From Escherichia phage vB_EcoM_3HA14, in sequence record MN342151.1: a DNA stretch of 64,000 nucleotides. The stretch is one strand, 5' to 3'. The notes under the pieces are model-generated. The model saw only the letters and a list, made by a program, of their open reading frames with translations. It was not told where the DNA came from and searched no databases. Below are positions 2,968 through 62,172 of the stretch, piece by piece (position 1 is the first letter of the stretch; each line of letters starts with the position of its first letter). The translations under genes and the position numbers were made by a program.

Positions 2968-3219
2968 GTGAGCAATAAAGAGCAAGAAGCTTTAGCAATC
3001 TTCAAGAGCGAAGACAAATCAATAGCTTTTGTCTCAGAGGCTTGGTGCAGGGATTTGGGGTATGATTGGTATCTCTTCTTATGCGCTAAGAAAGATGTTA
3101 AACCAGTTGATGAAACCCGATTCAAAGAACTGTATAATATCTGCCAAGAGGGTTATGAAGAACATTACGAAGGTTCTTTGAATCCTGTAAATTCAAAAGC
3201 TTCAGATTTATTTTATTGA
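2968..3219 (+). CDS. hypothetical protein (83 aa)
   Basis: ORF in co-directional early gene block. Confidence 0.35.
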   Translation: MSNKEQEALAIFKSEDKSIAFVSEAWCRDLGYDWYLFLCAKKDVKPVDETRFKELYNICQEGYEEHYEGSLNPVNSKASDLFY

Positions 3220-3229
3220 GAGGTTTGAA

Positions 3230-3475
3230 ATGTTAAAATTATTGATACCAGCTTTAGTAGTCCTACTGGTTGGATGTAACCCTTCTTATGAGAATAAGGA
3301 TGCTTCTTACAGACTTCCTCCAGAAATGCAAGACTGCAAGATTTATAAACTTAATGGTGATGCCATTAGCAGGGATGTTATTGTAGTTCGCTGCCCAAAT
3401 TCTCAGACGACAACTTCTTACAAGTATGGGAAGAATAGTCAGTCACACACCACAGTTTTTGATGGGGGATATTAA
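3230..3475 (+). CDS. putative lipoprotein (81 aa)
   Basis: N-terminus MLKLLIPALVVLLVGCN has a signal sequence plus lipobox (LVGC); GAGG RBS upstream. Confidence 0.5.
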   Translation: MLKLLIPALVVLLVGCNPSYENKDASYRLPPEMQDCKIYKLNGDAISRDVIVVRCPNSQTTTSYKYGKNSQSHTTVFDGGY

Positions 3476-33541: not shown

Positions 33542-33617
33542 TGGAGTATCGGAAGGGACTCGAACCCTCATAAACCTGTTTTGCAGACAGGCACATAACC
33601 ATTTCTGACACCGACAC
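33542..33617 (-). tRNA. tRNA-Cys (GCA)
   Basis: Manual fold: acceptor GTGTCGG/CCGATAC, anticodon arm CCTGT-CTGCAAA-ACAGG, T-arm GAGGG-TTCGAGT-CCCTT, CCA encoded. Confidence 0.75.
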
Positions 33618-33623
33618 ATAATT

Positions 33624-33716
33624 TGGAGGAAGATACCAGACTTGAACTGGTACGCCGATTTCTCGGTTACTGGCAGTTTAGCAAACTGCTCCCTTACCTT
33701 TTAGGGTTAATCTTCC
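33624..33716 (-). tRNA. tRNA-Ser (GCT), long variable arm
   Basis: 93 nt; acceptor GGAAGAT/ATCTTCC perfect; anticodon loop TTGCTAA; long variable arm; T-loop TTCAAGT. Confidence 0.75.
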
Positions 33717-33717
33717 A

Positions 33718-34452
33718 TTATTTGTTCAGAGCTTCTTTCATCTCTGGAGTTGCGATAGTATCAATCACACCAGTTTTACATGAATCATCAAACCAGCTTG
33801 GTAGAACATTCGCAAGGAAACCATTAATATTTGTTTTCAGATATTCTGCAATCAGTGCTGCTTCATCTGCAATCATCTGAGTTACTTCGTTAGCATATGC
33901 AGTAATCTTTGCAATACCCTCATTAATCGCTGTAACGGCCTGTGTAGCGAGTTCAGAGATTGTATCTAGTCCTTGGTCGATTGCATCTTGCAAATCGCTT
34001 AGAACGCCATTTACAGCGTCTATGGAGGTATTAATCAAATCCATCGCTTTATTACCGTACTCGGTAGCTACGCCCATGATACCGCTAAACGGTGTACATC
34101 CAACCTGTTCACCTGCTGCTCCCATAACGTTAGAGTAACCTTTAGCTACTTGCATACGTTGTGAAAACTCATCTACAGACTTTTGTCCATACTCAGTAAG
34201 TGTACTTGTCGTTGAAGTTGTACTTCCAAGGCTTGTTGTGAAGCTTCCTAATAAGGCTGTTGTCAGTCCAGCAGCAACTAAAATCTGTTGTGTAGCTGGG
34301 TCTGTTACAGAACTAATTGAGTTAACTAATGATTGAGAGGCAGCTATAGTACCACCAAGAACTGCTGCACCAGTAATAAGAGGGTTTGAAAAACCATTAC
34401 CAGTTTTAAGGAGATTAAAAATCTCTTTACTTTGTTCTGTCATCTCTTTCAT
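33718..34452 (-). CDS. hypothetical Ala/Thr/Ser-rich protein (244 aa) within tRNA cluster
   Basis: ORF-track start (GTG at 34515) would run through a tRNA-Phe; ATG at 34452 has a GGTG RBS and avoids the tRNA. Confidence 0.5.
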   Translation of the reverse strand: MKEMTEQSKEIFNLLKTGNGFSNPLITGAAVLGGTIAASQSLVNSISSVTDPATQQILVAAGLTTALLGSFTTSLGSTTSTTSTLTEYGQKSVDEFSQRMQVAKGYSNVMGAAGEQVGCTPFSGIMGVATEYGNKAMDLINTSIDAVNGVLSDLQDAIDQGLDTISELATQAVTAINEGIAKITAYANEVTQMIADEAALIAEYLKTNINGFLANVLPSWFDDSCKTGVIDTIATPEMKEALNK

Positions 34453-34468
34453 TATGCACCTATAAAGT

Positions 34469-34545
34469 TGGTAGCCCATCGGGATTTGAACCCTGTTCTC
34501 ATGTTTTTCAGACACGCGCTTTAACCATATAAGCTAATTGAGCTA
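34469..34545 (-). tRNA. tRNA-Phe (GAA), atypical acceptor/D spacing
   Basis: Anticodon arm CGTGT-CTGAAAA-ACATG; D-arm GCTT-ATATGGTTA-AAGC; T-loop TTCAAAT; acceptor pairs only with a 1-2 nt offset and T-stem is weak. Confidence 0.55.
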
Positions 34546-34551
34546 TTAAAT

Positions 34552-34628
34552 TGGGGTGACCTACGGGAATCGAACCCGTATAGACCATGTTCACAGCATG
34601 GGTCATTATCCATTTATGATAAGGCCAC
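34552..34628 (-). tRNA. tRNA-His (GTG)
   Basis: Anticodon arm CCATG-CTGTGAA-CATGG; D-arm TCAT/ATGA; acceptor GTGGCCT/AGGTCAC; CCA encoded. Confidence 0.75.
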
Positions 34629-34659
34629 ATTTAAGGACTCTCGTAAGAATCCTTAGAAG

Positions 34660-34735
34660 TGGCAGCAGTATAAGGATTTGAACCTTAATCTTTCAGCTTC
34701 AGAGGCTGGAGCATTGCCAGTTATGCTATACTGCT
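34660..34735 (-). tRNA. tRNA-Gln (CTG)
   Basis: 76 nt; anticodon loop CTCTGAA; D-arm GCAT/ATGC; acceptor AGCAGTA/TACTGCT perfect. Confidence 0.7.
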
Positions 34736-34741
34736 AATATT

Positions 34742-34820
34742 TGGTACTCCATATCGGATTCGAACCGATACATAACACAGATTTTAAATCTGGCCTCTCT
34801 GCCAATTGGAGTAATGGAGC
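34742..34820 (-). tRNA. tRNA with Leu anticodon (TAA) but short variable arm
   Basis: Anticodon loop TTTAAAA; D-loop AATTGGCAGAG (Leu-like); variable region about 7 nt; discriminator A; T-arm ATCGG-TTCGAAT-CCGAT. Confidence 0.6.
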
Positions 34821-34822
34821 AT

Positions 34823-34898
34823 TGGCGGGGGATGATGGAATTGAACCATCTTCTTCGATTTCAAAGACCGAGGTTTTAACCTTGTAAACTAATCCCCT
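34823..34898 (-). tRNA. tRNA-Gln (TTG)
   Basis: Anticodon arm TCGGT-CTTTGAA-ATCGA; D-arm GTTT/AAAC; position 1:72 mismatched. Confidence 0.65.
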
Positions 34899-35124
34899 AA
34901 CGAACTCTTGAAAGAATATATGCGTTATTGCAAGTATCCTTATTTTCAGGTAGTGATGTTTCGAAGATAACTTGCTTAAGTTCTAATCCAGCAAAGTTAT
35001 AAACAACCTTTCTAACTTCTAACGGGTCACATTGCCAACCAACCGCTATAAAGAAAGTATCTCCAAATCTACCTGTTTCAATCTTGTGGTCATCTTTATG
35101 TTTTTCAACTATGAGTTTATACAT
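34897..35124 (-). CDS. hypothetical protein (75 aa) between tRNA genes
   Basis: ORF fills the gap between two tRNAs. Confidence 0.35.
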   Translation of the reverse strand: MYKLIVEKHKDDHKIETGRFGDTFFIAVGWQCDPLEVRKVVYNFAGLELKQVIFETSLPENKDTCNNAYILSRVR

Positions 35125-35142
35125 AATGTTACCTATTAAATT

Positions 35143-35219
35143 TGGTGCAGAATAGAGGATTCGAACCCCTAACTAACAACTTCGTAGGTTGCTGCTCTGT
35201 CCATTTGAACTAATTCTGC
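35143..35219 (-). tRNA. tRNA-Arg (ACG)
   Basis: Acceptor GCAGAAT/ATTCTGC perfect; anticodon arm GCAAC-CTACGAA-GTTGT. Confidence 0.75.
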
Positions 35220-35381
35220 AATATCCTTTTGAGATTCCTGTCTAGCTCTCTTCTTATCTCTTCTGAGAAAGCGTTTACGATGGTCTGTACGCCATTTGTA
35301 ATAATCTTCTTCACCATCATGCGCTGCACAGCAGCCACAACTTGCAATTTCAACTTTACCATGTCTACCATAAGGCTTCAT
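35169..35381 (-). CDS. hypothetical Cys-rich basic protein (70 aa)
   Basis: ORF whose 3' 51 nt overlap tRNA-Arg; CxC plus basic KRxRR-like segment. May be real or chance. Confidence 0.3.
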   Translation of the reverse strand: MKPYGRHGKVEIASCGCCAAHDGEEDYYKWRTDHRKRFLRRDKKRARQESQKDIAELVQMDRAATYEVVS

Positions 35382-35397
35382 AGGAATCTCCTAAAAT

Positions 35398-35475
35398 TGG
35401 TGTTCCAAGACGGATTCGAACCGTCACTAATACAAGGTTTGAGCTTGCATCCTCTGCCAATTGGGATACTGGAAC
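35398..35475 (-). tRNA. tRNA with Leu anticodon (CAA) but short variable arm
   Basis: Anticodon arm GCAAG-CTCAAAC-CTTGT; D-loop AATTGGCAGAG; variable region about 6 nt; discriminator A. Confidence 0.6.
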
Positions 35476-35476
35476 T

Positions 35477-35551
35477 TGGTACTCGCTGAAGGACTTGAAC
35501 CTTCTTCACCAACTTGTAAGGATGGGGCTTTACCATATAAACTAAGCGAGC
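35477..35551 (-). tRNA. tRNA-Val (TAC)
   Basis: Anticodon loop CTTACAA; T-arm GAAGG-TTCAAGT-CCTTC; separated by 1 nt from the neighbouring tRNA. Confidence 0.7.
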
Positions 35552-35646
35552 TTTGAAGAGGTCTGAAGCTGTGCCGCTAACTCAACTCCGTGGAATTTGT
35601 TACGGTCTTCAGTTGACTCAAGCGGTCTTTCACTTGACCTCAAAAT

Positions 35647-35723
35647 TGGTGCTGCTCACAGGACTCGAACCTGCATCTCCATCCTTACAAGGGATGTGCA
35701 ATAGCCAATTATACGAAAGCAGC
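35647..35723 (-). tRNA. tRNA-Thr (TGT)
   Basis: Anticodon arm CATCC-CTTGTAA-GGATG perfect; T-loop TTCGAGT. Confidence 0.75.
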
Positions 35724-35729
35724 ATTATT

Positions 35730-35804
35730 TGGAGCATCCAGAGGGAATCGAACCCTCAACCTCAGTTTGGAAGACTGTAATTTTCCCATTTAAACTATGG
35801 ATGC
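35730..35804 (-). tRNA. tRNA-Gly (TCC)
   Basis: Acceptor GCATCCA/TGGATGC perfect; anticodon loop CTTCCAA. Confidence 0.75.
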
Positions 35805-35810
35805 ACTAAT

Positions 35811-35886
35811 TGGTGGAGAAGCAGGGAATTGAACCCTGTACTTAAGTTTGCAAAACTTATGTTTTAACCATGTAAACTACATCCCC
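35811..35886 (-). tRNA. tRNA-Ala (TGC)
   Basis: Anticodon arm TAAGT-TTTGCAA-ACTTA perfect; D-arm GTTT/AAAC; G3:U70 wobble (Ala identity element) present. Confidence 0.8.
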
Positions 35887-35892
35887 ATTGTT

Positions 35893-35968
35893 TGGTACAG
35901 GTGGAGGGAATTGAACCCATCGTCTTACTGATTAAGAGTCAGCCGCATAACCATTTTGCTACACCTGC
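35893..35968 (-). tRNA. tRNA-Lys (CTT)
   Basis: Anticodon arm GCTGA-CTCTTAA-TCAGT; T-stem only 3 bp (GGG/CCC). Confidence 0.6.
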
Positions 35969-35975
35969 ATTAATT

Positions 35976-36052
35976 TGGTACACCTAGAGAGATTCGAACT
36001 CACACTGAGCAGATTCTAAGTCTGCTGCCTCTTCCAATTGGGCTATAGGTGC
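35976..36052 (-). tRNA. tRNA with Leu anticodon (TAG) but short variable arm
   Basis: 77 nt; anticodon arm GCAGA-CTTAGAA-TCTGC perfect; D-loop AATTGGAAGAG; 5-nt variable loop; discriminator A. Confidence 0.65.
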
Positions 36053-36305
36053 ATTAAATCTTTGTAGAGAACTGCTAAGACGCCAAAGCAACAATGGTAT
36101 CAAATGCCTTAACAATTCTCTAAAAAGACCTATTGGCCTCTGCATAGTCTTGCTTAATCCGGTGACTAGAACCTTTGGAGAGCTTGATACTATCTCTTCT
36201 CCGTGACACCTACTAGGTGCTTTACCAGTGCCGTGTACGCCAATACACGAAGAGGAAACCTGAAACACTTGCTCGAACAAATAGTCTCAGCTTTAAATCT
36301 TATTA

Positions 36306-36395
36306 GGCGGTAGATAAAGGAGTCGAACCCTCACCGTATCTCTACAATGGCAACTGTTTTCAAGACAGTTTGGCTTCCATTAGCCGCTACCTACC
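36306..36395 (-). tRNA. tRNA-Ser (TGA), long variable arm
   Basis: About 90 nt; anticodon arm ACTGT-CTTGAAA-ACAGT; long variable arm; 3' CC encoded but not the terminal A. Confidence 0.7.
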
Positions 36396-36408
36396 CCTAA
36401 TAAGACTT

Positions 36409-36491
36409 TGGCATGGGACGGAGGATTCGAACCCCTTTGAGTAAGTTTTGGAGGCTTACGCACATGCCTTAGTGTCTTAACATCGTCCCAT
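36409..36491 (-). tRNA. atypical tRNA-like gene, possibly tRNA-Trp (CCA)
   Basis: Perfect 7-bp acceptor ATGGGAC/GTCCCAT and T-arm. Anticodon stem GTAAG/CTTAC encloses a 9-nt loop CCTCCAAAA (CCA anticodon if the closing pair is unpaired); D region about 8 nt longer than canonical. Confidence 0.5.
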
Positions 36492-36656
36492 ACTATATTT
36501 CGAAGCTTACCCTGTTATCTCAACACTGTCAAGCTTCTTCTCAGATTATTTACATGTTCTGGAAAACATGAGATACAGACCACCTCCTTATGAGATTGAC
36601 TCTTTCAAGTCAATGCGGAGACCCATAAAGGTCGTCATAGTAATCTGCTAACTAAT

Positions 36657-36724
36657 TGGCAGTCAAGGTAGGAGTCGAACCTACTTACTATTAAAGGGAG
36701 CTACCCTTCAGCAACTATCCGACT
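36657..36724 (-). tRNA. tRNA-like element (truncated or non-canonical)
   Basis: Canonical T-arm GTAGG-TTCGACT-CCTAC and CCA end, but only about 68 nt to the best acceptor match; no convincing anticodon arm. Confidence 0.35.
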
Positions 36725-36785
36725 TTCGTTTATCTCTTAACGCGTATCCAAGATAACTTACTCGTGTTGTCTTGACCATTAAAAT

Positions 36786-36862
36786 TGGCACACCCTACAG
36801 GATTCGAACCTGTAACTGACGGTTTAGAAGACCGTTGCTCTATCCGTTTGAACTAAGGGTGC
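36786..36862 (-). tRNA. tRNA-Arg (TCT)
   Basis: Anticodon arm ACGGT-CTTCTAA-ACCGT perfect; T-arm ACAGG-TTCGAAT-CCTGT. Confidence 0.75.
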
Positions 36863-37066
36863 ATTATCTTTAAAGGCTCTCTTAGAAAACCCTTAAAGAT
36901 GCCCACTTTATTAATCATACCGTGGGCTAGTACGCCAAATTCTTTAACAGGGAGTTGGAATACCCTGCTGGTGTTTAGCCTATTAAGCTACTGCCAGAAA
37001 AACATTATCGTTTGCATTTATTTTTAAGTTTTTAAAATAGACGCTACGCTAACGAAAACTAAGGTT

Positions 37067-37095
37067 ATCTTAAAGTGGTCACATCTAAATGTCAA
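37067..37095 (-). promoter_or_regulatory. possible internal sigma70-like promoter in tRNA cluster spacer
   Basis: On - strand: TTGACA (37090-37095), 17-nt spacer, TAAGAT (37067-37072). Confidence 0.3.
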
Positions 37096-37109
37096 CAACT
37101 TTATGAAAT

Positions 37110-37187
37110 TGGTTGTAGGTGAGGGTATCGAACCCTCTTCTAACGGTTATCAGCCGTTTGCATTACCATTTATGCTAACCCACAATT
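37110..37187 (-). tRNA. tRNA-Ile (GAT)
   Basis: Anticodon arm AACGG-CTGATAA-CCGTT perfect; D-arm GCAT/ATGC. Confidence 0.75.
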
Positions 37188-37189
37188 GG

Positions 37190-37266
37190 AGGTTCAGGTG
37201 GGAATCGAACCCACATTCATAGGGCTTATGAAACCCTTGCATTACCTTATCTGCGACTGAACCATT
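37190..37266 (-). tRNA. tRNA-Met (CAT), elongator-like
   Basis: Acceptor GGTTCAG/CTGAACC perfect; anticodon arm AGGGT-TTCATAA-GCCCT; 1:72 paired, so not initiator-like. Confidence 0.7.
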
Positions 37267-37344
37267 ATAAGTTGCCCCTTTGTAGAGAACTGATTGAGTG
37301 GGTGTTTCCAGCCGCGCATGTGTTCTTCAGTTAAGGGGCGAATT

Positions 37345-37421
37345 TGGTAGAAGTGGAGGGATTCGAACCCGTCGCCTGTCAGATTAAAAGTCTGCCGCAT
37401 CACCATTCTGCTACACTTCCA
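37345..37421 (-). tRNA. tRNA-Lys (TTT)
   Basis: Anticodon region GCAGA-CTTTTAA-TCTGA; weak T-stem like the CTT isoacceptor. Confidence 0.65.
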
Positions 37422-37606
37422 TTAAATCATCTTTGCAGTAACCTACGCAAACCTTGCTAAAGGGTTTGTAGAGTCATCTCTTATAAGCTAATCTAGAATC
37501 ATGCTCAAGAGACTCTTCGGCACTCATGGGACGACTGGTTAGCTCCATAAGTCACTGCAAAGAGGATTACCAGACCGTATTTATCTTAAGTGCTTCCATT
37601 ACACCA

Positions 37607-37643
37607 ACACGCCGTAACGTGTGAAGGAATCGAACCTTCGCCT
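37607..37643 (-). ncRNA. orphan T-arm-like hairpin with adjacent stem-loop (tRNA-like module without acceptor or anticodon)
   Basis: Sense strand GAAGG-TTCGATT-CCTTC followed by ACACG-TTACGG-CGTGT; no pairing acceptor found within 100 nt. Confidence 0.3.
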
Positions 37644-37844
37644 TTTCTTTACCAGAGAAATAGATTGTTTATTGTTTGCTGTAAACGGTCTTCTGTAAAA
37701 TTGTTGGAACCAGACCAAGTTTTAAATTTTTCAAATTAAATTGGCTTGAAATATTAAAATTGCTTGCTGTATTTGGTCTTCTGCTCCTTTAAAGAATACT
37801 CGTAAGAACTCTTTAAGGGAGGGGCTAAAAAGCCCTCTCAAATT

Positions 37845-37921
37845 TGGCGGTTACGAAGGGATTCGAACCCTCATCATCCTCCGTGACAGGGAGGTATTTT
37901 GACCAGTTAAACTACATAACC
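37845..37921 (-). tRNA. tRNA-Asp (GTC)
   Basis: Anticodon arm CCTCC-CTGTCAC-GGAGG perfect; T-arm GAGGG-TTCGAAT-CCCTT. Confidence 0.75.
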
Positions 37922-37927
37922 TTTATT

Positions 37928-38015
37928 TGGTGCGCCGTGAAGGAGTCGAACCTCCCGAGTCATAATGACAAGTGATTTACAGTCACCACCGCTTCCATCT
38001 ACGGGATAACGACGC
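37928..38015 (-). tRNA. tRNA-Tyr (GTA), long variable arm
   Basis: 88 nt; anticodon arm GGTGA-CTGTAAA-TCACT; variable-arm hairpin TGTCA..TGACT. Confidence 0.7.
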
Positions 38016-38083
38016 ATTTTATTCTATTCAGGCTAAGGACTTGCACCTTACAAATCGGTGAGCAATCGCTTCTCTCCCAAATC

Positions 38084-38161
38084 TTGGCGGTTAGTCAGGG
38101 ATTCGAACCCTGTACCATTCGGTTAACAGCCGACCGCACATGCCTTATGTGCTTCCTAACC
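38084..38161 (-). tRNA. tRNA-Asn (GTT)
   Basis: Anticodon loop CTGTTAA; D-arm GCAC/GTGC; T-arm CAGGG-TTCGAAT-CCCTG. Confidence 0.7.
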
Positions 38162-38245
38162 ATGTTAGTATTACCAGACCGTATCTTTTCATTTTTTGCC
38201 TATAAAAAATTTTAAGTGTTTGCTGTAAACGGCCTTCTGTAAATT

Positions 38246-38322
38246 TGGAGGCGGGTGTAGGAGTCGAACCTACCGATAACATGCTAATGAGACATGTGAG
38301 ACACCCTTTCTCTATACCCGCA
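38246..38322 (-). tRNA. tRNA with CAT anticodon (Met or Ile2), 1:72 mismatch
   Basis: Anticodon arm CATGT-CTCATTA-GCATG; first acceptor pair unpaired (T:C). Confidence 0.6.
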
Positions 38323-38409
38323 ATTCTTAATGACCAGACCAAATCTTTTTTGGATTTCTATGCGCGAAATTGAAAAGTTTGTTTGCTGTAATTGGTCTTC
38401 TGTCAAAAC

Positions 38410-38487
38410 TGGCATTCCCGAAGGGACTTGAACCCTCAAACCACACCTTGAAAGGGTGTTGACTTTACCTAATTTGTCTACGGGAAT
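38410..38487 (-). tRNA. tRNA-Glu (TTC)
   Basis: Acceptor ATTCCCG/CGGGAAT perfect; anticodon arm ACACC-CTTTCAA-GGTGT perfect. Confidence 0.75.
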
Positions 38488-38493
38488 ATAATT

Positions 38494-38573
38494 TGGTCTC
38501 CGTTGAAGGATTTGAACCTTCGACCCCTTGCTCCCAAAGCAAGTGCTGCTAAACCAAACTGAGCTAAACGGAG
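38494..38573 (-). tRNA. tRNA-Pro (TGG)
   Basis: Acceptor CTCCGTT/AACGGAG perfect; anticodon arm CTTGC-TTTGGGA-GCAAG perfect. Confidence 0.75.
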
Positions 38574-38738: not shown

Positions 38739-40154
38739 TTACCAATCGTAGCGTTCAACCATTACTGCTTTGAGCATTACGCTGATAGGGTCAAACTTCT
38801 CACCACCAAGCAAAGCTTTTAAAGTGGCTGGAGAGAAACCAGATACCATTGCTACACCGTTATCCTTTACAGACACTTCGCAAGTACCGTTACGGTTTGC
38901 TAAGTACCAGAATACCAGTTGTGGCATCTCATATCCAGCTTTCTTGTACTTTTCTTGAATTGCTTCAAAGTTAGTACGACCATCTGCTCCATCAACCTGA
39001 TTAAACTGCATATCAGAGAAGATGATAAGCTTACTAGGCATCTCTTTCTGAGTCAAGTTGTTTTTAACACCAATCTCAAGGATTCTTGCAAAAGCAGCTT
39101 GTAGGTCAGTTGAACCATACTCTACATGACTCTTCACTTGACGTAAGCGAGTCTGTAAATCACCACTCAATGTGATGAAGTGAGGTCTGCTAGAGTAAAC
39201 CATCAATTCATCTTTAAAGCAACCTGTATTACGTTCTGAAACGTACAGGGCTAAAGATACACCAATGTCTAGCGCTGTAACAGAACCATGTCGCTCCCAA
39301 GTCATAGATGAAGATACATCTGCCATGCACAGAATGTTCTCACCCTCTTTCATCCAGTTTGGTAAAGCTTTCCACTGCTCATTTGCAACGGTTGCATTAC
39401 CATAACCGACTGACTTTGTAATGTCATAAGGGTAGACTGCACCAGCATTAATCTTTGTCTCACCTTTAGTCAGTGCTGCAATGTATGCTGCATAACGCTC
39501 ACCATCTTTACGACTGAAGAGTTTTTGATAACGTGCAGCAGCCAGTGAAGGAAGCTTGCTGTAATCAATCTCTCCGAACTCATTTGCTGAAATCTTTTGT
39601 TCAACAGTATCAGACAGTGCTGACAGAAGAACTCGATACTGCTTCTCTGAAAGATTTGCAAACTTACAGAAACGACGAACAAAACGCATGTGTCGTGATT
39701 TTACTCGTGGTAACCATTTTGCTGCCAGAGCCGATGTTGCAGGGTCTAACAGTGCAGCTTCTAAATGCTTGAAAGCATCTGTTTCGTAACGTGTACCAAC
39801 AAAGATTTTAAAGTCGTCATAACGACCTAAATCAGAAATCTTGTCCATGATACGTAACACTTGGAACTCATCAAGAATCCCGTCAGAGATTGCTTTAGTA
39901 AGAGTATAACGGAACGCTTTACGCTCACCCATACCTTCTCGTGCATCTCGCATATGTAACAGGATTCGAACTGCTACATCAATATCTTCTCGCATTGCCT
40001 TGTAAAACAAGTTTGGAAGAACTTCTACATTTGTTCTGCTTGAACCAGCAGCTTTGTAGAAATCTACCAGTGCAGACATTGAAGAGGTGTGGTTAACAGC
40101 ACCGTTTTCAGTTAAACCTGCATGTAAATGCGAGTGCTTAAATAATTCGCTCAT
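38739..40154 (-). CDS. vWA-domain protein (471 aa), possibly TROVE/Ro60-like
   Basis: C-terminal half has vWA hallmarks: hydrophobic strand then DVSSSM (MIDAS DxSxS) and LIIFSDMQFN; N-terminal about 270 aa helical. Directly upstream of and co-oriented with the tRNA cluster. Confidence 0.55.
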   Translation of the reverse strand: MSELFKHSHLHAGLTENGAVNHTSSMSALVDFYKAAGSSRTNVEVLPNLFYKAMREDIDVAVRILLHMRDAREGMGERKAFRYTLTKAISDGILDEFQVLRIMDKISDLGRYDDFKIFVGTRYETDAFKHLEAALLDPATSALAAKWLPRVKSRHMRFVRRFCKFANLSEKQYRVLLSALSDTVEQKISANEFGEIDYSKLPSLAAARYQKLFSRKDGERYAAYIAALTKGETKINAGAVYPYDITKSVGYGNATVANEQWKALPNWMKEGENILCMADVSSSMTWERHGSVTALDIGVSLALYVSERNTGCFKDELMVYSSRPHFITLSGDLQTRLRQVKSHVEYGSTDLQAAFARILEIGVKNNLTQKEMPSKLIIFSDMQFNQVDGADGRTNFEAIQEKYKKAGYEMPQLVFWYLANRNGTCEVSVKDNGVAMVSGFSPATLKALLGGEKFDPISVMLKAVMVERYDW

Positions 40155-61476: not shown

Positions 61477-62172
61477 TCAGTTTTTAACAAGCATTGTTTT
61501 GATGTGTGGTAAGATTCTTTCAACCTTCTCCACGTTCTTCACTGTATCTTCTATAAAGCATACTACATCATAGTAAGGTAGAATGCAAGACTGAAGCATA
61601 CGAACTTTCAAACTTTCTGCACTAATCTCATTGTCACCAAATCCACGCATAAACAGTAGGAAATCACTGTCTACATTCTCATTCAGGAAAAGATGTGTGA
61701 CAACTCTTTGTGATTCACCACGAGCGGTTAAGAATCCTATATCAGCATTTCTTGATATACCACACAGAATGTTAAAAACATATGTTGGTTTAGCTCTGCA
61801 AGATTCTACCAAATCAGTATACTGTGAGTAAGTACCATCAGTTAGCAGAGTTGCATTAAGCTCCTTATTAAAGCTTGTAAGAACACCGTCAATGTCTGCT
61901 AAGACCATTTTACGTTTTTCTTCCAAGTTCTTTGCAACCAAGATAAGGCTGTTACGACCAACATATACAGTTTTACCTGTTAGCAAATCCTGACAAGGAA
62001 TCTGTGTCTTTGTTGAGTGGAAGTCTTCAAAGCTACACACAACATATCTTGCTGTATCTGCAAAGTCAGCTTTAGCAATATCTGACCAACTTGCAGAACT
62101 GATATCTAAATCAAGTGGCTTAATATCATAAGCATGACACAGAACCATATCAAATTGTTTTGATTCGCTCAT
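61477..62172 (-). CDS. HAD-family phosphatase-like protein (231 aa), possible 5'-nucleotidase
   Basis: Motif I-like VLADIDGVL (hhhDxDGxL) at residue about 100; later FIEDT resembles motif IV. Confidence 0.4.
   Translation of the reverse strand: MSESKQFDMVLCHAYDIKPLDLDISSASWSDIAKADFADTARYVVCSFEDFHSTKTQIPCQDLLTGKTVYVGRNSLILVAKNLEEKRKMVLADIDGVLTSFNKELNATLLTDGTYSQYTDLVESCRAKPTYVFNILCGISRNADIGFLTARGESQRVVTHLFLNENVDSDFLLFMRGFGDNEISAESLKVRMLQSCILPYYDVVCFIEDTVKNVEKVERILPHIKTMLVKN

Follow-up and report, generated by a model that had tools for sequence, protein, structure and literature searches.

Three class I leucine tRNA genes with short variable arms in the tRNA array of Escherichia phage vB_EcoM_3HA14

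In the genome of Escherichia phage vB_EcoM_3HA14 (MN342151.1), a Felix O1-like myovirus (Ounavirinae, genus Mooglevirus), three tRNA genes with leucine anticodons lie on the minus strand of the 64,000-nucleotide stretch analysed here, which is referred to as the window. The first, tRNA-Leu(UAA) at 34742–34820, is 79 nt long including its encoded CCA and has an anticodon loop reading UUUAAAA, a G1:U72 pair, and a variable region of 7 nt (GUUAUGU). The second, tRNA-Leu(CAA) at 35398–35475, is 78 nt long, again with an encoded CCA, and has a variable region of 6 nt (AUUAGU). The third, tRNA-Leu(UAG) at 35976–36052, is 77 nt long with its encoded CCA, and combines G1:U72 and A37 with a variable region of 5 nt (UCAGU). 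ARAGORN places the genes at the same coordinates as a first-pass annotation of the DNA, which had described three tRNAs of 77 to 79 nt with anticodons TAA, CAA, and TAG and an A discriminator, and A73 is indeed present in all three. The Rfam tRNA model RF00005 scores them at 46.9, 44.0, and 56.1 bits, respectively, above its gathering score of 29 bits, and ARAGORN assigns the same anticodons. All three belong to a phage tRNA array at 33542–38573 (minus strand), in which ARAGORN and Rfam find 26 tRNAs for 19 amino acids, leucine included, with small open reading frames (ORFs) interspersed.

The same genes can be found in close relatives. Over the 5.3-kb tRNA region, identity to Shigella phage Sf17 stands at 99.1%, and at least 80% of this region is covered in 182 phage records. 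Across the 1.3-kb interval that holds the Leu genes, identity to Sf17 is 99.8%, the genes themselves being essentially identical. Their Sf17 counterparts are already annotated as tRNA-Leu (TAA and CAA among them), share the short-arm architecture, and are given the same three anticodons (UAA, CAA, and UAG) by tRNAscan-SE.

Since tRNAs often fail in single-sequence folding, such folding was set aside and the structure was judged by ARAGORN, Rfam, and covariation. ARAGORN gives each gene a cloverleaf with a 7-bp acceptor stem, a 3-bp D stem carrying an 11-nt loop, and anticodon and T stems of 5 bp each. The anticodon loop has 7 nt with U33, the T loop reads UUCGAAU (the GTTCGAAT loop looked for in an RF00005 cloverleaf), and the pairs are backed by covariation. 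RNAalifold, applied to a 13-sequence alignment, returned a four-arm cloverleaf without an extra arm, with compensatory changes on both sides at 17 of 21 pairs; pairs kept through compensatory change argue that the leucine-tRNA feature is not a chance match. None of the three tRNAs has the long variable arm of class II tRNAs, a region of more than 10 nt with a stem that is typical of tRNA-Leu in bacteria. The spacing from the anticodon stem to the T stem is 7 nt (UAA), 6 nt (CAA), and 5 nt (UAG), in agreement with the 5 to 7 nt and the lack of a long arm reported in the first pass. The tRNA-Ser (93 and 90 nt) and tRNA-Tyr (88 nt) of the same array retain arms of 15 to 21 nt. A long-arm tRNA-Leu was found neither in the window, using ARAGORN, Rfam, and a permissive Rfam scan of the array, nor in the rest of the 99%-identical Sf17 genome, whose parts beyond the window's range contain no tRNA. 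The permissive scan returned only a T-arm remnant and sub-threshold noise (including tmRNA-like, YrlA-like, and plastid-ycf2 matches on the antisense strands of tRNAs).

The identity set of Escherichia coli leucyl-tRNA synthetase (LeuRS) comprises A73, U8:A14, A15:U48, G18G19, A20a, and the contacts between D loop and T loop; E. coli leucine identity depends on neither anticodon nor long arm, and arm-less constructs remain active (PMC9976931). All three window tRNAs have A73, U8:A14, A15:U48 as a trans-Levitt pair, G18G19 four bases beyond position 13, A20a, and U54, U55, C56, and A58 in the T loop, and their anticodons, UAA, CAA, and UAG, are of the leucine form NAG or YAA. By the published rules, therefore, the full E. 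coli LeuRS identity set is present in each, and the arm alone is missing. The genes were also aligned with E. coli leuW, leuZ, leuT, and leuX and with the tRNA-Leu of T4 and T5, all of which are 85–87 nt long and long-armed. Common to all nine tRNA-Leu compared are the D arm (a 3-bp stem and an 11-nt loop of the form N-AAYYGG-N-A-R-A), A73, and a U just 5' of the T stem. In the three window tRNAs the D loop has the sequence C-AAUUGG-C/A-A-G-A, and its earlier assignment to the tRNA-Leu type fits the D-arm design shared by E. coli, T4, and T5. When 96 tRNAs were parsed, taken from the window, T4, T5, E. coli, and another six phages, such a D arm turned up essentially only in tRNA-Leu, and in the window it occurs in the three Leu genes and in 0 of the 23 other tRNAs. 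The three do not have the makings of suppressor or recoding tRNAs: their anticodons read UUA, UUG, and CUA, and their identity set is that of leucine. Position 37 is A in the phage tRNA-Leu(UAG) and in the T5 tRNA-Leu(UAG), as opposed to G37 in E. coli leuW, the m1G37 site of CUN-reading tRNA-Leu. This A37 may be relevant to a published proposal that anticodon loops are altered in phage tRNAs.

Class I tRNA-Leu, with a variable loop of about 5 nt, a Leu-type D arm, A73, and a leucine anticodon, is the kind to which the three genes belong; the UAG gene has the canonical 5 nt, and the loop extends to 6 nt in the CAA gene and to 7 nt in the UAA gene. A distant blastn search with the UAG gene gave ungapped matches of 80–83% to annotated tRNA-Leu of Mycobacterium, Streptomyces, Bacillus, Enterobacter, and Enterococcus phages, which ARAGORN measures at 74–78 nt. 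For a broader survey, viral and bacterial sequences were scanned with a pattern made up of the D-arm motif, any NAN anticodon (16 possible, 6 of them leucine), a 5–7-nt variable region, and the T loop. The scan of IMG/VR yielded at least 120 loci, and the bacterial scan used one genome per species; the counts given here are for the matches listed and are samples, not totals. In IMG/VR at least 130 tRNAs match, and 130 of the 130 listed have leucine anticodons (taa 49, tag 36, caa 32, gag 6, cag 4, and aag 3). At least 120 tRNAs match in bacterial genomes, again with leucine anticodons in 120 of the 120 listed. Actinomycetota account for 101 of these 120 listed bacterial loci, and the look is that of an ordinary chromosomal gene, with a single tRNA per 8 kb, in 96 of the 118 listed bacterial loci where ARAGORN found a tRNA. 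The 19 non-actinobacterial loci among the matches listed are mostly dense arrays of 5–34 tRNAs, which look phage-derived. Class I tRNA-Leu of Nostoc, Elusimicrobia, Acidobacteriota, Hyphomicrobiaceae, and Pirellulales, for instance, sit in arrays of 21–34 tRNAs per 8 kb, and these are likely prophage or mobile tRNA arrays. Enterobacterales are missing from the bacterial matches listed, though the scan by itself does not settle their absence. A blastn search of 5,426 complete E. coli genomes detected no relative of the UAG gene, and in E. coli, class I tRNA-Leu arrives only with phages, namely Ounavirinae and Vequintavirinae relatives such as Enterobacter phage F5M1E and Cronobacter phage CR8.

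The viral members of the family behave as genuine tRNAs in their covariation. Over 20 cloverleaf pairs in 135 unique 74-nt viral members, canonical pairing holds in 97.6% of stem cells, compared with 43–47% when the 3' partners are shifted, and 91 pair types are used over these 20 pairs. U8, U48, and A73 are each conserved in 100% of these members, even though they were absent from the search pattern. The relative frequency of the two classes can be estimated from class-agnostic viral samples, which were anchored on the anticodon loop and T loop only. Among the matches listed, tRNA-Leu(UAG) was class I in 33 and class II in 31 (n = 64), and tRNA-Leu(UAA) was class I in 17 and class II in 52 (n = 69), which corresponds to a short-arm share of 25–52%. 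Short-arm tRNA-Leu is thus common in viruses, and the same architecture is found in phages of Actinomycetota, Bacillota, Cyanobacteria, and Pseudomonadota. A literature search for short-arm tRNA-Leu in phages returned only a paper on Streptomyces coelicolor (PMC6614811), although mention elsewhere is possible. Annotated in near-identical phages and of a class I kind published for S. coelicolor, the three genes are an under-discussed but ordinary feature.

How the short arm came about can be approached through sequence identity. Once the variable region is removed, the three genes match class I tRNA-Leu from unrelated phages and from Actinomycetota at 74–84% identity. Against the class II tRNA-Leu of E. 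coli, T4, and T5 the figure is only 47–69%, no higher than against non-Leu tRNAs of the window (64–71%). The kinship is therefore closer to class I than to class II tRNA-Leu. It had been supposed that the genes were the phage's leucine isoacceptors in a minimised form. They are the sole tRNAs of the phage with leucine anticodons, but the identities argue against a host-like gene having recently lost its arm by deletion, and “minimised” does not fit. Such a deletion, local to the Felix O1 lineage and starting from a host-derived or T-even-like long-arm tRNA-Leu, would account for the D-loop type and A73 that the genes have in common with E. coli tRNA-Leu. It would not account for their greater likeness to class I genes or for the same architecture in phages of four host phyla, and we give it next to no chance; the idea is already disfavoured. 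Inheritance from a widespread class I tRNA-Leu lineage is instead what the sequence comparisons point to. The trait is old within Ounavirinae, as all four genera examined keep short tRNA-Leu. For example, the Kolesnikvirus SunLIRen, an Erwinia phage, has three short tRNA-Leu (anticodons taa, aag, and caa) in syntenic positions, with acceptor stems that are almost entirely re-paired.

Codon usage can also be compared with the anticodons on offer. The window has a G+C content of 38.8%, and its leucine codons are divided into UUA 26.5%, UUG 17.6%, CUU 26.3%, CUC 5.1%, CUA 9.8%, and CUG 14.7%. A 49-kb sample of E. coli gave UUA 11.4%, UUG 11.4%, CUU 14.7%, CUC 12.5%, CUA 2.9%, and CUG 47.0%. UUA, UUG, and CUA, the codons that match the three anticodons, are thus used by the phage 1.5–3.4 times as often as in the E. 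coli sample. In the terminase, which is 69% identical to that of SunLIRen, UUA, UUG, and CUA sites of the window align with leucine at 17 of 21 positions, mostly encoded by CUU or CUG in SunLIRen. An alignment of phage and E. coli ThyA (38% identity) places leucine opposite UUA at 6 of 8 sites and opposite UUG at 1 of 9, with too few leucine sites to be informative. By the terminase alignment, UUA, UUG, and CUA mean leucine in this phage.

Taken together, these observations suggest that the three tRNAs are functional class I leucine isoacceptors charged by the host LeuRS, a reading to which we assign a probability of about 80%. Among other points in its favour, the phage has no other tRNA-Leu and no LeuRS: no aminoacyl-tRNA synthetase is annotated in Sf17, and the longest ORF of the window is at most 792 aa. 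The host would transcribe the genes within the phage tRNA array, and its enzymes would process the array transcripts into tRNAs. Host LeuRS would then charge them with leucine by way of A73 and the tRNA core, and the tRNAs would read UUA/UUG, UUG, and CUA, perhaps with other CUN codons, supplementing the decoding of AT-rich leucine codons. The short arm would represent the ancestral state of the class I lineage, which is carried both by Actinomycetota chromosomes and by arrays of phages whose hosts span many phyla. What the analysis establishes are the genes with their fold and conservation, the identity nucleotides, the distribution of the family, and the codon usage; leucylation by the E. 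coli or Shigella LeuRS, expression, and decoding range are all presumed here from the features of the genes.

Several points weigh against this reading. At 1 nM, E. coli LeuRS (EcLeuRS) left the S. coelicolor type I tRNALeu(CAA) transcript uncharged, and EcLeuRS has been called a type II-only enzyme (PMC6614811). The S. coelicolor tRNA differs, however, in having C48, whereas position 48 is U in the three window tRNAs (and in 100% of the 135 viral members), where it forms with A15 the pair that E. coli LeuRS needs. The C-terminal domain of EcLeuRS contacts nucleotides 47f–47i of the long arm, with Arg811 meeting C47h (PMC6614811, PMC3561953), and charging without the arm may therefore be less efficient. 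As no relative of the UAG gene occurs in the E. coli genomes searched, compatibility with E. coli is backed solely by the persistence of the genes in virulent coliphages. The folds are also imperfect, with a C27:U43 mismatch in the UAA tRNA and one U:U mismatch in the T stem of the UAG tRNA. Single-sequence folding energies are unremarkable (z-scores of -2.1, -1.8, and -0.6), and folding of the UAG gene alone did not reproduce the cloverleaf.

Some of these points could be taken to mean that the three tRNAs are not leucine acceptors in this host at all, but uncharged or poorly charged relics, decoys, or regulators, or substrates of another synthetase. EcLeuRS did fail on the only type I bacterial tRNA-Leu tested (PMC6614811), the stems have small defects, the Rfam scores of the UAA and CAA genes are modest, and decayed material is present elsewhere in the array (the T-arm-only remnant at 37615–37689). 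Even so, relics or decoys would hardly be expected to keep the full leucine identity set, an encoded CCA, and a fold conserved with compensatory changes across Ounavirinae genera, in a family where all 250 members listed have exclusively leucine anticodons. The anticodons of the three tRNAs match leucine codons that are enriched in the phage and that mean leucine there, and mischarged tRNAs at 54% of leucine codons would harm every phage protein. Nor is any identity element for another synthetase apparent. A role other than leucine acceptor is accordingly considered highly improbable.

Absence of the arm could also be viewed as an adaptation. A short arm would keep the tRNAs from being mistaken by seryl-tRNA synthetase (SerRS), which reads arm size, and would let them escape host or phage factors specific to class II tRNAs, nucleases or modification enzymes for instance, while they remained leucine decoders charged by host LeuRS. 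Leucine decoding would then continue while host tRNA-Leu was attacked or depleted. In keeping with this, all three Leu tRNAs are class I whereas the Ser and Tyr tRNAs of the array keep long arms, and class I is frequent in viral contigs (33 of 64 UAG and 17 of 69 UAA tRNAs among the matches listed). Outside Actinomycetota, class I is found mostly in dense phage-like arrays (among the matches listed) and is absent from E. coli. Escape of phage tRNAs from host nucleases has been published for anticodon loops (PMC10264068), and the UAG tRNA has A37 where leuW has G37. Yet a literature search found no bacterial defence that targets tRNA-Leu via its arm, T4 and T5 use long-arm tRNA-Leu in the same host, and nothing in the window ties the tRNAs to a nuclease or inhibitor. 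Class I tRNAs of Actinomycetota are ordinary single chromosomal genes, so inheritance suffices as an explanation. An adaptive role for the short arm is therefore doubtful. A bolder version treats class I tRNA-Leu as a mobile lineage that is native to Actinomycetota, has been taken up by phages of unrelated hosts, and works in enterobacteria in spite of a class II-only host with a LeuRS reported to reject a type I tRNA-Leu. Its missing arm would have been selected because it prevents SerRS from cross-charging fast-evolving phage tRNAs or lets them escape host factors that read the class II arm. We regard this as speculative and would put it forward only tentatively. If true, the Felix O1-like tRNAs would be a natural experiment defining the minimal tRNA-Leu for E. 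coli LeuRS.

The remainder of the array has features of its own. The first pass had taken all 19 other amino acids to be covered, but tRNA-Trp is missing: none was found in the array by ARAGORN and a permissive Rfam scan, nor in the rest of the Sf17 genome. In SunLIRen a tRNA-Trp(cca), at 3201–3276 of the extracted locus, sits between the Thr and Gly genes, and in the window the Thr (35647–35723) and Gly (35730–35804) genes are spaced by 6 nt only. At 37615–37689 (minus strand) lies an RF00005 match of 28.8 bits, just below the threshold of 29 and uncalled by ARAGORN, in which the T arm alone is recognisable (GAAGGTTCGATTCCTTC); it looks like a decayed tRNA gene within the array. The tRNA-Ser(tga) at 36306–36395 (minus strand) ends in ...GCC-U and is the sole tRNA of the 26 without a genomically encoded CCA. 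In both tRNAs with CAU anticodons, at 37187–37263 and 38246–38322 (minus strand), a U precedes CCA in the ARAGORN parse, giving a TCCA tail. Small ORFs at 34898–35143 and 35219–35398 (minus strand), equivalent to Sf17 gp25 and gp24, are interleaved with the tRNA genes, and gp24, as annotated in Sf17, shares about 50 nt with tRNA-Arg(acg). Abutting the array at 38739–40154 (minus strand) is a gene whose 471-aa product contains the domains DUF7788 (E = 6e-44) and DUF2828 (E = 6e-27), in the same layout as in Sf17 (gp23). Farther away, the ORF at 61477–62172 (minus strand) is called a polynucleotide kinase in Sf17 (gp113) and has no Pfam match at E <= 0.01. A phage polynucleotide kinase had been considered as a possible link to tRNA repair, and this was dropped for want of Pfam support.

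In textbooks and in the single experimental paper devoted to it, short-arm bacterial tRNA-Leu is regarded as a rarity, and the scans presented here suggest otherwise; in Actinomycetota, short-arm tRNA-Leu are routine chromosomal genes. The practical consequence for the window is small, given that the genes of close relatives are correctly annotated as tRNA-Leu. A conflict is nevertheless brought out: EcLeuRS is said to be a type II-only enzyme, but three type I tRNA-Leu that carry every element of the E. coli identity set are kept by virulent coliphages. The three tRNAs could bear on whether the long arm matters for enterobacterial LeuRS, and could also serve as compact, naturally optimised tRNA-Leu scaffolds for tRNA engineering.

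Among known systems, the S. coelicolor type I tRNALeu(CAA) (Fan et al., Nucleic Acids Research [NAR] 2019, PMC6614811) and the class I genes of Actinomycetota resemble the window tRNAs in their variable loop of about 5 nt, C13, A14, A15, G18G19, A20a, A73, and leucine anticodons, and the window genes are 74–81% identical to actinobacterial class I members outside the variable region. Unlike S. coelicolor, in which one isoacceptor is type I, the phage has all three in this form, two of them with 6- and 7-nt loops, and its host is an enterobacterium with exclusively class II tRNA-Leu of its own and with a LeuRS that did not charge the S. coelicolor tRNA. Similar short tRNA-Leu are found in Mycobacterium phages MrMagoo and ArcherS7 (Bxz1-like), Streptomyces phage Warpy, Bacillus phage P59, and Enterococcus phage CCS1, in the Vequintavirinae Enterobacter phage F5M1E and Cronobacter phage CR8, and in the Ounavirinae relatives Sf17, Moogle, Michonne, and SunLIRen. 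Anticodon sets can differ from that of the window, as in SunLIRen (taa, aag, and caa) and ArcherS7 (caa, gag, and cag). Enterococcus phage CCS1 has both classes side by side, with a short tag tRNA (288–363) and an 86-nt long-arm taa tRNA (446–531 of the extracted locus) next to a phage tmRNA gene.

The class II tRNA-Leu of E. coli (leuW, leuZ, leuX, and leuT), T4, and T5 share with the window tRNAs the D-arm design, A73, the U at the last variable position, the anticodons UAA, CAA, and UAG, and presumably the synthetase, but have a variable region of 12–15 nt with a stem, a feature absent from the window tRNAs. Animal mitochondrial tRNA-Leu are also class I, with identity resting on A73 and A14 (PMC9976931). 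They differ from the window tRNAs in being organellar and structurally degenerate, in having a dedicated mitochondrial LeuRS, and in showing no sequence kinship. A further parallel is offered by the minimalist arm-less E. coli tRNA-Leu constructs (Larkin et al. 2002; Asahara et al. 1993, 1998), which, as summarised in a review (PMC9976931), are E. coli LeuRS substrates provided that A73 and the tertiary contacts between D loop and T loop are kept. Those constructs were made in the laboratory; the phage tRNAs look like their counterparts in nature.

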